From assembly GCA_025463515.1 (NCBI GenBank), contig JAODAQ010000053.1, positions 62,735-126,734 of the forward strand: a stretch of 64,000 nt of DNA, given 5' to 3'. The stretch comes from Rhodoglobus sp. Lineage in GTDB: Bacteria > Actinomycetota > Actinomycetes > Actinomycetales > Microbacteriaceae. A model generated the notes under the pieces. It made no database searches. It was not told where the DNA came from and saw only the letters and a list, made by a program, of their open reading frames with translations. Made by a program: the position numbers and the translations under genes. Below are positions 11,078 to 46,888 of the stretch, piece after piece. Positions within the stretch are counted from its first letter, which is position 1, and the number at the start of each line of letters is the position of its first letter.

Positions 11078-11677
11078 ATGCTGGAGACCGTGACTGCTGA
11101 CAACGACGTGACAGCCGAGGGCCAGGCCCCCGCCGCTCGCCTGCAGGACCTTCTGGAGCGAGTCGCCCAGGCCGATCAGCGCGCGTTCTCCGAGCTGTAC
11201 GACGCCCTGTCGCCCCGTGTGTTCGGCCTGATCAAGCGCCTGCTGCGCGACCACGCGCAGTCGGAGGAGGTCACGCAGGAGGTTTTCCTGGAGATCTGGC
11301 AAACTGCTACGCGCTTCGATCCGAATAAGGGTGGAGCAACGACGTGGATCCTCACGATGGCCCACCGTCGTGCGGTGGACCGGGTGCGGTCCTCGCAGTC
11401 GTCGCGCGACCGAGACACCCGCATCGGCATCCGCGACTACAAGGTCGACTACGACCATGTCTCTGAAACCATTGAAGTCCGTCTCGAGCACGAAAGGGTG
11501 GAGAAAGCCATGACACGTCTTACCGAACTGCAGCGCCAGGCCGTCTCCCTCGCGTACTACGGCGGCTACAGCCACAGCGAGGTGGCGCAGATGCTCTCGG
11601 TGCCGATCGGCACGGTCAAGACCCGACTGCGCGACGGCATGATCCGCCTGCGCGATGAACTGGGGGTGACCTCATGA
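11078..11677 (+). CDS. sigK: ECF sigma factor, SigK-like
   Basis: Sigma-70 region 2 (AFSELYDALSPRVFGLIKRLLRD...EVTQEVFLEIW) and region 4 (LTELQRQAVSLAYYGGYSHSEVAQMLSVPIGTVKTRL). ATGA-coupled to an RskA-type anti-sigma gene. Confidence 0.85.
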   Translation: MLETVTADNDVTAEGQAPAARLQDLLERVAQADQRAFSELYDALSPRVFGLIKRLLRDHAQSEEVTQEVFLEIWQTATRFDPNKGGATTWILTMAHRRAVDRVRSSQSSRDRDTRIGIRDYKVDYDHVSETIEVRLEHERVEKAMTRLTELQRQAVSLAYYGGYSHSEVAQMLSVPIGTVKTRLRDGMIRLRDELGVTS

Positions 11678-12435
11678 CCCGCAAGGATGACGCGAGCCTC
11701 TCCGGCGCCTACGCCCTGAACGCTCTCGACGCCGAGGAGGCCAAGGCCTTCGAGGCCCACCTCGCCGAGAACGAGGAGACCCGCAACGAGGTGACCGAGC
11801 TCGCCGATACCGCGGTGCTGCTCGGCCTCGCGGTCGCCCCCGAGACTCCGCCCGCGTCGCTCAAGGCCAGCATCATGGCCCAGCTCGCGACGACGCCCCA
11901 GCTCGACCGCGAGCCGGTGACATCTCCGGATGCCCGCTTCGCAGGCCGCGCGGAGACCGCAGCGCAGGCGCGCTGGTTCCAGCGACCGGTGAACGCCATC
12001 ATCGGGATCGCGGCTGCCGTCGCCCTCATCATCGGCGGCGGTGTGGCCGTGAACGCGATCAGCACGAACGTGACGCAGTCCGCCGAGGCGAACCAGCTCG
12101 CGGCGATCCAGGCTGCCTCCGACTCGCAGAGCCTCAAGGGCTCCGTCGCCGGTGGCGGCAAGGCGACCCTCGTGTACGCGCCGAGCCTCAAGGCCTCTGC
12201 GCTCATCGTCGAGGGAATGAACGCGCTGCCCGCCGACAAGGTCTACGAGCTCTGGTACATCAACGAGGCGGGCGCGCGCCCGGCCGGTACCTTCACCATC
12301 GGCCCCGACGGCAAGATGTGGCAGGTGCTCGAGGGCACGATGACCCCGGGCGATGCCGTCGGCGTGACCGTGGAGCCGCACGGCGGCTCGACTGCCCCGA
12401 CCACCGACCCGGTGCTGGTGATCGCTAGCGCCTGA
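11674..12435 (+). CDS. rskA: Anti-sigma-K factor RskA
   Basis: N-terminal anti-sigma helix (LSGAYALNALDAEEAKAFEAHL), one TM segment, and the RskA C-terminal domain (YELWYINEAGARPAGTF...GVTVEPHGGS). Confidence 0.8.
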   Translation: MTRKDDASLSGAYALNALDAEEAKAFEAHLAENEETRNEVTELADTAVLLGLAVAPETPPASLKASIMAQLATTPQLDREPVTSPDARFAGRAETAAQARWFQRPVNAIIGIAAAVALIIGGGVAVNAISTNVTQSAEANQLAAIQAASDSQSLKGSVAGGGKATLVYAPSLKASALIVEGMNALPADKVYELWYINEAGARPAGTFTIGPDGKMWQVLEGTMTPGDAVGVTVEPHGGSTAPTTDPVLVIASA

Positions 12436-12438
12436 TCT

Positions 12439-12511
12439 CTGCGCGATCTGCTCGACCTGCGCGACTGCGCGACTGCGCGACCTCTGCACGACCTGCGCGA
12501 CCTCTGCACGG
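12439..12511. repeat. Short tandem repeats (CTGCGCGA x3 and a ~20-mer x1.5)
   Basis: CTGCGCGA occurs in tandem at 12457-12480. CCTCTGCACGACCTGCGCGA is then partly repeated, immediately after the rskA stop. Confidence 0.7.
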
Positions 12512-12674
12512 CCGAGGGCCCCGGGAAGCATCCTGGGGCCTTCGTTGTGCGGTCGGGCGCCCTGCGCTGAGGGGCCACTTTCTGCGGCCGGCCCCGGTCT
12601 CGTCGCAACAACTGGCCCTCGGCCGGCTGCGATGAAGTAAGGCGAAATCGCCTAGCCGCCCTCGACCCTCGCCC

Positions 12675-12726
12675 AACTTCCCCATATGGCTGTTCCCGAG
12701 CCCCGGAACAGCCATATGGGGAAGTT
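12675..12726. repeat. Perfect 22-bp inverted repeat (hairpin)
   Basis: AACTTCCCCATATGGCTGTTCC / GGAACAGCCATATGGGGAAGTT with an 8-nt loop. Confidence 0.85.
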
Positions 12727-12727
12727 C

Positions 12728-12827
12728 GCGGCGGCGGCGGCGGCGGCGGGGGCGGGGGCGGTGCGGGACGGTGCGGCGCGGGACGGGACGGGACGGTGCG
12801 GCGCGGGACGGGACGGGGCGGGGCGGG
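12728..12827 (+). repeat. (GGC)n plus a G-run tandem tract (G-quadruplex-prone)
   Basis: (GGC)6-7, then GGGGGCGGGGG, then a repeated GGGACGG(TGCGGCGC)GGGACGGGAC unit. 12805-12827 reads GGGacGGGacGGGGcGGGGcGGG. Confidence 0.75.
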
Positions 12828-12861
12828 ACGCGGTCGTCCGCCGCCGGGTCCGCGCGCATCC

Positions 12862-12938
12862 TTCGACACGATGCGGAGGTTTCGGCGACCGCATGGTGTC
12901 GAAACCTCCGCATGGGCGGACGGGCCGGCGCCCGAGAC
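12862..12938. repeat. Overlapping alternative hairpins (ATGCGGAGGTTTCG core) plus a conserved tail
   Basis: GACACGATGCGG/CCGCATGGTGTC and ATGCGGAGGTTTCG/CGAAACCTCCGCAT are mutually exclusive stems. The tail CCGCATGGGCGGACGGGCCGGCGCCCGAGA recurs at 41133-41165. Confidence 0.7.
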
Positions 12939-12955
12939 GAGCCATTAAGTGGGCT

Positions 12956-13007
12956 GAGCCTGTCGACATCCCCTCACGTAGAGCGTGGGTGAGATGTCGA
13001 CAGGCTC
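12956..13007 (-). terminator. Long hairpin downstream of pstB (terminator candidate)
   Basis: Perfect 15-bp arms GAGCCTGTCGACATC / GATGTCGACAGGCTC, extendable by CTCAC/GTGAG. It starts 17 nt past the pstB stop. Confidence 0.5.
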
Positions 13008-13024
13008 AATCCGCCCAAGAAGGA

Positions 13025-13804
13025 TCAACCGAACTTGCCGGAGACGTAGTCCTCGGTCGCCTGCACGGACGGCTTCGAGAACATCGTGACCGTGTCGTCG
13101 TACTCGATGAGCTTGCCGGGCTTGCCGGTGCCCGCGATGTTGAAGAAGGCGGTCTTGTCGGAGACGCGCGATGCCTGCTGCATGTTGTGGGTCACGATCA
13201 CGATCGTGTACTCCTGCTTGAGCTCCTCGATGAGGTCCTCGATGGCGAGCGTGGAGATGGGGTCGAGGGCCGAGCACGGCTCGTCCATGAGGATGACCTC
13301 GGGCGAGACGGCGATCGCGCGGGCGATGCAGAGGCGCTGCTGCTGGCCGCCCGAGAGGCCGGAGCCGGGGAGCGCCAGGCGGTCCTTGACCTCGTTCCAG
13401 AGGTTGGCGCCCTGGAGCGACTTCTCGACGAGGTCGTCGCCCTCGCTCCTCGACATGCGGCGGTTGTTGAGCTTGACGCCCGCGAGCACGTTGTCGCGGA
13501 TCGACATCGTCGGGAACGGGTTCGGGCGCTGGAACACCATGCCGACCTGCCGGCGCACGAGCACGGGATCGACGCCCGGGCCGTAGAGGTTGTTGCCGTC
13601 GATGAGCACCTCGCCCTCGACGTAGGCACCGGGGATCACCTCGTGCATGCGGTTGAGCGTGCGGAGGAACGTCGACTTGCCGCAGCCGGAGGGGCCGATG
13701 AACGCGGTCACCGTGCGGGGCTCGATCGACAGCGAGACGCCCTCGACGGCCTTGAACTTGCTGTAGTAGACGTTGAGGTCGTTGACTTCGATGCGCTTGG
13801 ACAT
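13025..13804 (-). CDS. pstB: Phosphate ABC transporter ATP-binding protein PstB
   Basis: Walker [18 protein letters not shown] signature, Walker B ILMDEP, typical PstB C-terminus. Confidence 0.95.
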
Positions 13805-13833
13805 GATTCCTGTCTGGGTCTGAAGGGGTAGGG

Positions 13834-14916
13834 TCAGCGGCCGAGTTTGGGCGAGAAGATGCGGGCGACGAGCCGCGCGATGAGGTTGAGCAGCATGACG
13901 ATGACGATGAGGGTCAGCGCTCCGGCCCAGGCCCGGTCGAGGTACGGCTGCACGTCAGAGCCGGGGTTGGCGTACTGGGTGTAGACGAAGACGGGGAGCG
14001 ACATCATCCGGTCGTCGAACAGGTCGTAGTTCATGCTCGCGGTGAACCCGGAGATGATCAGCAGCGGCGCGGTCTCGCCGATGACGCGCGCGATGGCGAG
14101 CGTCACACCGGTAGTGATGCCGGCGATCGAGGTCGGGATCACGATGCGCAGAATGGTGAGCCACTTCGGCACCCCGAGCGCGTACGCGGCCTCGCGCAGC
14201 TCGTTCGGGACGAGCTTGAGCATCTCCTCGCTCGAGCGCACCACGACCGGGATCATGAGCAGCGAGAGCGCGACAGAGCCGCCGAAACCGAACCGGATGC
14301 CCGGATCGTGCAGTACCAGGTCGAAGAACGCGAAGGCGAACAGGCCGGCGACGATCGACGGGATGCCCGTCATGACGTCCACGAAGAAGGTGATCGCGCG
14401 CGCGAGCGCTCCGCGGCCGTACTCCACGAGGTAGACCGCCGTGAGCAGCCCGACCGGGACCGAGATGAGCGCCGCCATGCCGGTGATCTCGAGGGTGCCG
14501 ACGATCGCGTGCAGGGCGCCGCCGCCCTCGCCGACCACGTTGCGCATCGAGCTCGAGAAGAAGCTCAGGTCGAAGCGGGGCAGGCCGTTCGAGACCACCG
14601 TGTAGAGCAGCGAGATGAGCGGGATCAGCGCGAGGATGAACGCCGTCGCGACGAGCGAGGTGACCAGGCGGTCCTTCGCCTGACGGATGCCCTCCACGAG
14701 GTAGGCCAGCACGAAGATCGCCACGTCGAACAGCACCGTGCCGAGTACGAGGGCCGCCGCGATGTTGAACTCGGTGCCGTTGGCCGCCGCCATGAACGCG
14801 AAGACCACGATCATGATGACCCAGCTGCCGGCGAGGATCACCCAGGGGCTCCACTTGGGCAGGCGCCCCGTGGTCAGCGAGTTGACGATGCCGGTGGCCT
14901 CGGTGGTCGTGGTCAT
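13834..14916 (-). CDS. pstA: Phosphate ABC transporter permease PstA
   Basis: ATG at 14916 forms an ATGA overlap with the pstC stop. Has the EAA-like loop [11 protein letters not shown]. The 599-aa track ORF is an artefactual extension. Confidence 0.9.
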
Positions 14917-46470: not shown

Positions 46471-46523
46471 CCCTGCCCGGCCCTGCCCAGCCCTGCCCAG
46501 CCCGGCCCAGCCCGGCCCGGCCC
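46471..46523 (-). repeat. (CCCNN)11 pentanucleotide tract (G-quadruplex-prone on the minus strand)
   Basis: Eleven consecutive CCC runs separated by 2-nt spacers (tg/gg/ag), embedded in a ~240-nt C-rich low-complexity tract (46385-46620). Confidence 0.85.
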
Positions 46524-46665: not shown

Positions 46666-46888
46666 CCGGGGCGTGGAAGCGCGACAACCGCCGAACGTTC
46701 GGAGAGGCGGGCGTTTGCGTCCGAGCGGTGAGTCAGCGGGGAGCGGGCGCCAGCGAGGATAGGGCAGGTGTGGCGCCGGCGGAGCGCGAGCGGGAGTGGG
46801 GGAGAGGGCGGGAGTGGGTCGGGGCGCACGTGCGGCGCAGATTCGGCCCTCAGAGCCCTGCTGGCCGCGCCCCCGCTAAACTTGCCCG

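Follow-up and report, generated by a model that had tools for sequence, protein, structure and literature searches.

A potentially quadruplex-forming pentanucleotide repeat in the spacer between convergent rskA and pstB genes of a Rhodoglobus genome

A G-rich stretch between two convergent genes of a Rhodoglobus genome raises the question of whether a sequence that satisfies the rule for a G-quadruplex (G4) is a regulatory element or a by-product of the repeat in which it lies. In the window, by which is meant the whole 64,000-nt stretch of DNA analysed here, the initial annotation had drawn attention to a tight G4 motif at 12805-12827 of the plus strand, GGGACGGGACGGGGCGGGGCGGG, and the DNA reads there letter for letter as it was given. 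Five G runs of 3, 3, 4, 4 and 3 nucleotides are separated by the loops AC, AC, C and C, and the canonical rule of four G3+ runs joined by N1-7 is satisfied with loops of 1-2 nt. The longer G-run tandem tract said to surround the motif is likewise present, with 11 runs of three or more guanines across 12748-12827; the minus strand, on which pstB is read, carries the C-rich complement, and no gene lies on the plus strand over the tract. As for what the match means, the tract is probably a hypervariable, degenerate pentanucleotide microsatellite, capable in principle of forming a G4 in vitro and with no evidence of selection for one. The motif is the tail of a strain-specific non-coding repeat that is absent from close relatives, and is thus most likely an ordinary product of slippage rather than a regulatory element.

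The repeat and its surroundings

A sigma factor gene and rskA lie on the plus strand and pstB on the minus strand, so that two transcription units converge on the spacer that holds the tract. On the far side of pstB, gene calls on a metagenome contig from a close strain (L013, described below) place pstA and then pstC. The non-coding spacer between rskA and pstB spans 589 nt (12436-13024), and the tract stands 184 nt from the stop codon of pstB and 282 nt from that of rskA. The features of the locus, in window coordinates, are as follows.

11078-11677, plus strand: ECF sigma factor gene, upstream of rskA
11674-12435, plus strand: rskA-like anti-sigma factor gene, left flank
12439-12510, plus strand: CTGCGCGAC-type 9-mer tandem repeat, directly 3' of the rskA stop codon
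12514-12549, plus strand: terminator-like hairpin of rskA, with a 13-bp stem, the loop AGCA and a GTTGTG tail
12675-12726, unstranded: pal1, a perfect 22-bp inverted repeat with an 8-nt loop, abutting the tract (z -8.7)
12728-12830, plus strand: G-rich imperfect tandem tract of 103 nt, delimited by TRF
12728-12748, plus strand: (GCG)7, start of the tract
12748-12759, plus strand: (GGGGGC)2, second block of the tract
12760-12829, plus strand: 14 in-phase GGNNC pentamers with zero indels
12805-12827, plus strand: tight-loop G4 motif GGGACGGGACGGGGCGGGGCGGG, the sole G3+N1-7 x4 match in the tract
12838-12853, plus strand: CCGCCGCC-type stretch, imperfect inverted partner (81%) of the (GCG)n tract start
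12862-12917, unstranded: pal2, a REP-like palindrome (ATGCGGAGGTTTCG...CGAAACCTCCGCAT; z -4.6)
12955-13008, unstranded: pal3, an inverted repeat with 16-bp arms and an inner hairpin, 17 nt after the pstB stop codon (z -8.4)
13025-13804, minus strand: pstB, phosphate ABC transporter ATPase gene, right flank, convergent with rskA

Over 12728-12830 TRF reports arrays of period 5, 20 and 25, the first with 19 copies and the last, a 25-nt higher-order repeat, with 2.5 copies at 94% identity; the composition of the tract is 66% G, 24% C, 7% A and 3% T (90% G+C). The head-to-tail repetition of short units that characterizes microsatellites is plainly present. Read from 12760 to 12829, the pentamers are GGTGC, GGGAC, GGTGC, GGCGC, three of GGGAC, GGTGC, GGCGC, two of GGGAC, two of GGGGC and a final GGGAC. 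Because so many units are GGGAC or GGGGC, the array comes to include a single canonical tight-loop G4 motif, along with several that are near-canonical. Fourteen units in strict 5-nt phase, the 25-nt higher-order repeat and the preceding (GCG)7 are together the signature of tandem duplication. The motif would then be the distal end of a lineage-specific, non-coding array that runs from (GCG)7 through (GGGGGC)2 to (GGNNC)14 and that may have grown by replication slippage and duplication of units. To the right of the tract, 12838-12853 forms with 12731-12746 a 16-nt imperfect inverted repeat pair.

The predicted capacity of the G-rich strand to fold is very high. G4Hunter scoring, which had been proposed as a check on the motif, gives 2.39 for the 23-mer by hand count and 2.20 for the best 25-nt window, and in our own implementation the merged region covers 12718-12840 (123 nt, mean 1.44, maximum window 2.20) and ranks among the longest few in the genome. 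Folding models, too, favour a three-layer G4 at the motif for a single-stranded plus strand; with G-quadruplex energies, the ViennaRNA minimum-energy fold of this strand has one at about 12805-12823, and the Watson-Crick fold of the tract is no better than that of shuffles on either strand (z +1.3, and +2.95 on the minus strand). As a naked oligonucleotide the G-rich strand would very probably form a stable parallel G4, the most stable G4s being those with short loops and long G tracts (PMC7015867). In the cell, the tract would be expected to be double-stranded and to lie past both terminators.

Several ORFs of at least 60 aa cross the tract region or sit within it, and long ORFs occur on both strands. 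Those over the tract have a flat GC content at the three codon positions (GC1, GC2 and GC3 of about 0.7, 0.7 and 0.75), as against a GC3 of 0.92-0.98 in the neighbouring genes. Pfam gave no match for the minus-strand tract ORFs tested, and a 208-aa ORF on that strand (12243-12869) has zero relatives among 5.8 billion proteins. On these three grounds a coding sequence at the tract was rejected.

The rest of the spacer is also laden with repeats. Each of the three palindromes folds far better than its own shuffles, as the z values listed above indicate, and pal1, pal2 and pal3 all have the stable imperfect-palindrome hairpin that marks REP and related palindromic repeats, which the tract does not. 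The tract resembles the REP-like elements of this genome (the pal1, pal2 and pal3 families) in occupying the same spacer and in that pal1-family copies abut G-rich tracts at two loci, but differs from them in being non-palindromic and in having no significant Watson-Crick fold. pal3 is likely the terminator hairpin of the pst operon, and partial copies of one of its arms are found elsewhere in the genome. The pal2 family (ATGCGGAGGTTTCG ... CGAAACCTCCGCATGG) has at least eight further genome copies (C6:4784-4835, C29:49961-50016, C44:19544-19598, C44:20660-20712, C65:151549-151619, C65:161001-161072, C72:3343-3414 and C25:16790-16856), and a pal2-like match of 85% identity lies in a related genome, G017 (C1:942483-942549).

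pal1 (AACTTCCCCAWATGGCT ... AGCCATWTGGGGAAGTT) represents a small palindrome family of about five genome copies, those outside the window lying at C65:23426-23473, C68:31617-31664, C68:32653-32700 and near 16192 on C38. The copy at C65:23426-23473 has G-rich tandem tracts on both sides and (CCG)n at the end, and the layout of a pal1-like palindrome, a GGTGCGG-type G tract and (CCG)n recurs once, at C65:23303-23586. A mobile composite element made of pal1 and the G tract was considered and set aside, since one recurrence, with three other clear pal1-family copies standing without a G tract, is too little for a family. Neither a sigma-70-type promoter nor a U-tract terminator was predicted in the tract region. 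An Rfam scan of 11500-14000 (E<=1) returned only two far-sub-threshold palindrome matches of miRNA type, on pal1 and pal2, and a known RNA family was rejected on this result.

The spacer in relatives and strains

The gene pstB is present in 24 same-genus genomes, at up to 93% DNA identity, and in none of these 24 was any match to the spacer found. In 11 same-genus genomes (pstB 84-93% identical at the DNA level) the 700 nt downstream of pstB are of unrelated sequence and contain no canonical potential quadruplex sequence (PQS), and in eight metagenome relatives, one of them with a 99% identical PstB, tract and motif are absent downstream of pstB. The nearest named relatives of RskA are Rhodoglobus sp. 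MAGs. The metagenome relative L015 (PstB 99.2% and RskA 92% identical in amino acids) has a 516-nt spacer that shares with that of the window only the rskA hairpin, at 94% identity over 12506-12554, and in L016, L020, L021 and L040 the spacers are 75-150 nt long with one or two hairpins each, which is plausibly the ancestral state. From the absence of the tract from relatives it follows that the tract and the three palindromes were gained in this lineage or are confined to it; that near relatives lack the tract speaks against a part in regulating pst or SigK-RskA. Exact-word scans with the pal1 arm in metagenome and genome collections gave no matches, and a look-up of the sigma-factor protein returned no record.

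Across the genus the length of the rskA-pstB spacer ranges from about 90 nt to 4.2 kb. Other simple repeats occur downstream of rskA or pstB in same-genus genomes, namely three copies of GCGCCTGACCTGCACCA in L007 and (GCAGAC)n in L006; the spacer is thus a place where repeats have formed more than once within the genus.

Looking up the exact PstB and RskA proteins retrieved two contigs that bear directly on the tract. One, L014, a Logan contig of SRR13312974, is 100% identical to the window over 11626-12917, and since this assembly is independent the tract cannot be put down to a single assembler. The other, L013, is a JGI metagenome contig (sample 3300076274) whose single end underlies the whole strain comparison. 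It is 98.9% identical to the window over pstC-pstA-pstB, pal3 and pal2, ends within the spacer, and diverges at the right edge of the tract, just left of 12838-12853, with only 24 nt remaining to the contig end. These last 24 nt, at the contig end (L013:3468-3482), adjoin GGTCCGCGCGC and match the reverse complement of window 12741-12764 exactly. Three readings would account for such an end: the tract may have been inverted between the short inverted repeats, the strain may carry a long hairpin with a G arm and a C arm, or the contig end may be artefactual. It is the sole hint of instability at the level of strains, between which the length or arrangement of the tract may differ.

Arrays of G runs across the genome

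The draft genome (3.32 Mb, 69.4% GC) contains 293 canonical PQS loci, against 190-258 in simulations with Markov models of order 1-5, and 22 tight PQS loci (loops of 1-2 nt), against 7-15 in the same simulations. One free-standing tight PQS in 64 kb would not be remarkable. The pattern GGGNN x4, by comparison, occurs 10 times at 2 loci of the window against 0.04 expected from dinucleotide shuffles; the excess arises because the motifs belong to tandem arrays, and not because an isolated motif has beaten the odds. Genes were called with a home-made GC-frame likelihood caller (3126 genes, 88.9% coding), so that counts by gene context are approximate. The 11.1% of the genome that is non-coding by these calls holds 16 of the 22 tight loci, where a Markov-3 model trained on non-coding DNA predicts 1.75 (an excess of about 9-fold), and 83 of the 293 canonical loci, where it predicts 30. 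Within non-coding DNA, GGG arrays with 1-2-nt spacers stand 7.3-fold over the Markov-3 expectation and GGC, GCG and CGG arrays only 1.8-2.9-fold, a difference implying that G runs in particular are favoured, by mutation or by selection.

Arrays of G3N2 units occur in convergent, divergent and tandem spacers alike. With a minimum length of 45 nt and a best window of 1.8 or more, the genome has 159 long tracts of strong G/C skew; 64 of these are mostly non-coding, and these too are found in spacers of all three kinds. The period-5 pattern matches 30 times here and 0 to 26 times in same-genus genomes. A perfect 11-bp inverted repeat lies within 100 nt of 12% of the tracts and of 4% of control spacer segments, a modest difference (p = 0.017). 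All five of the period-5 arrays that TRF lists as best rows for the genome are built of G3N2 units (GGGCA, GGGCT, GGGAC and GGGCG).

The orientation of such tracts is uneven. In convergent spacers, 17 of 20 strongly skewed tracts, the present one included, are oriented so that the RNA of the nearer gene would be C-rich, and in tandem spacers the bias is weak (14 versus 9). When the 95 convergent spacers of at least 150 nt are taken as a whole, the half nearer a gene has more C than G on the sense strand of that gene in 69 of them (Wilcoxon p = 8e-7). Coding strands also are slightly richer in C than in G (-0.039), and the skew of tracts and spacers may therefore be a general compositional property. 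For the skew of convergent spacers, a termination signal, a mutation bias and errors in gene calling are candidate causes.

Set beside the PQS catalogued in bacteria (Bartas et al. 2019, PMC6539912), the motif looks familiar in that it meets the G3+N1-7 x4 rule, exceeds the G4Hunter threshold (1.2, with high confidence from 1.5), lies outside coding DNA, as PQS often do, and belongs to an actinobacterial host, from a group with high PQS density. It departs from them in its score, 97.9% of catalogued PQS falling at 1.2-1.4 and the motif higher, although the web-server classes offer no direct comparison for region scores from our own script. It departs from them also in being made by a tandem array rather than standing isolated, and in its genome, which is PQS-poor at 1.54 per kb against an actinobacterial mean of 2.82 per kb (PMC6539912).

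What the tract may be

At the level of sequence, then, the match to the G4 rule was correctly called, but the significance it seemed to confer, that of a discrete G4 element, is unsupported: the motif is the end of an array, is downstream of both genes and so in neither a promoter nor a 5' UTR, would belong to neither transcript by design, has no promoter-like site near it and is absent from relatives. It is most likely an ordinary instance of the incidental G4 property of a simple repeat. The tract shares with the bacterial microsatellites able to adopt non-B DNA (PMC7015867) its short head-to-tail units, its periodic G runs and its strain-specific occurrence, with one close strain differing at the edge, and differs from them in that its units are degenerate (GGNNC) rather than a pure repeat. 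As it lies neither in a promoter nor in a reading frame, it is not a classical contingency locus of the phase-variation type. We infer a slippage origin and neutrality. The tract would have grown in a repeat-laden spacer between the terminator hairpins of the convergent operons sigK-rskA and pstSCAB, would have no selected function, would be unstable in length or arrangement between strains, and would at most cause occasional stalling of polymerase. Its position between the conserved rskA hairpin (12514-12549) and the pstB-proximal hairpins counts in favour of a neutral repeat. Against pure neutrality count the 7.3-fold excess of G3-run arrays, compared with the 1.8-2.9-fold excess of other GC-trimer arrays, and the orientation bias of 17 in 20, though the latter matches the general strand skew of the genome.

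Regulatory G4s provide the obvious comparison. Examples with experimental support named in the catalogue (PMC6539912) are one upstream of nasT in Paracoccus denitrificans and those near transcription start sites in Deinococcales. As those examples are described there, the present tract resembles them in offering a G4-capable, G-rich motif in a GC-rich genome, but they sit upstream, or 5', of the genes they control, whereas the tract lies downstream of both neighbours, between convergent 3' ends and beyond hairpins on both sides, and is unconserved at the orthologous position in the 11 same-genus genomes and the eight metagenome relatives. A functional G4 of DNA or RNA could in principle act here in another way, as a roadblock or insulator between the convergent operons, with the plus strand folding whenever the duplex opens. 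It would either stall polymerase that runs on from pstB and copies the G-rich strand, or take the form of an RNA G4 or R-loop when transcription continues past rskA. This is unlikely, given that the tract is lacking even where PstB is 99% identical, lies past terminator-type hairpins whichever operon is read through, has counterparts in every gene orientation and belongs to a genome whose G4Hunter density is below the actinobacterial mean. What speaks for it is the very high propensity of motif and best window, the G4 in the ViennaRNA fold, the lack of any competing hairpin in the tract, and the roughly 9-fold excess of tight G4 motifs in non-coding DNA, above that of other GC-trimer arrays. 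The opposite strand suggests a different role, in which read-through RNA from pst would carry the C-rich sequence as a putative Rho-loading, rut-like zone for back-up termination and would shield sigK-rskA from antisense transcription when pst is strongly induced. The genome does encode Rho, as a 644-aa open frame whose length suggests a large N-terminal insertion like that of M. tuberculosis Rho. Downstream of pstB the sense strand offers about 100 nt (103 nt by TRF) of C-rich, G-poor sequence (66% C, 24% G) that folds worse than its shuffles (z +2.95), and C>G bias is given in PMC13650167 as a feature of classical rut sites. The C-richness on the nearer gene's RNA in convergent spacers, both of the tracts and of the spacers as a whole, agrees with such a role. 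In M. tuberculosis, however, the mapped Rut sites of the full-length Rho, with its large insertion, have no significant C>G bias and a lower G+C content, and are best told apart by U>G bias and low structure (PMC13650167); composition alone is thus a poor test for rut in this phylum, and a tract of 90% G+C is unconvincing as such a site. Since the tandem-spacer bias is weak, coding strands too have more C than G and relatives have no such tract, we regard a Rho-loading function as improbable.

A broader proposal takes the G3N2 pentamer arrays of this Rhodoglobus genome as a selected, strand-asymmetric class of spacer element, C-rich on the transcript of the nearest gene and G4-capable on its template, that provides hairpin-independent termination or insulation and that may, at this locus, flip between short inverted repeats; we hold it very unlikely. 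Flipping taken by itself, with the tract as a segment invertible between (GCG)n and CCGCCGCC, or as the remnant of a long hairpin with a G arm and a C arm, and with the orientation of the G-rich strand differing by cell or strain, is highly improbable. It would account well for the end of L013, which is exactly what an inversion with breakpoints in the 12731-12746/12838-12853 repeat would yield, and a join through an 8-9-nt repeat is presumably not expected from a long-word assembler; a palindrome elsewhere in the genome, at C57:9227-9438, stands between a C-rich tract and a G-rich one. But the case depends on 24 nt at the end of a contig, where fold-back and chimeric artefacts concentrate, and no recombinase gene is evident beside the tract. 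Barely credible is the idea that the tract is an artefact of assembly or sequencing, or else a low-complexity segment of a protein. G-rich repeats are hard to sequence, 7 of the 36 longest G-rich tracts of the draft are no more than a few hundred bases from a contig end, and long ORFs do cross the tract on both strands; an independent assembly nevertheless agrees across the whole tract, and the flat codon-position GC, the Pfam result and the protein search all weigh against coding. The neutral, slippage-born repeat is the reading that we retain.

By itself the tract matters little, as a further potential G4 in a spacer of a GC-rich actinobacterium. It carries a caution: in genomes of this kind, tight G4 motifs for the most part arise as by-products of tandem G-rich arrays, and contig breaks concentrate there. 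The excess of G3-run arrays and the C-richness on the sense side downstream of genes bear on how transcription ends in actinobacteria that lack U-tract terminators, and their interpretation depends on transcript ends.

The occurrence of long G tracts at contig ends (for example C32:289-389, C21:144-233, C65:166309-166478, C64:10099-10181 and C49:59-135) suggests that such tracts break assembly. In G037, a genome of the same order, there are about 780 matches to the pattern and uninterrupted poly-G runs of 50-70 nt (C2:241747-241799, C3:236576-236643), which look like sequencing or assembly artefacts rather than biology. The window itself holds a second, longer G3N2 array on the minus strand at 46471-46523, (GGGCY/GGGCA)n with 8 overlapping period-5 matches, and near it a further G-rich tract on the plus strand at 46792-46824; both lie in a non-coding spacer beside a GTCCTGAATACGGTGAAC-type palindrome.
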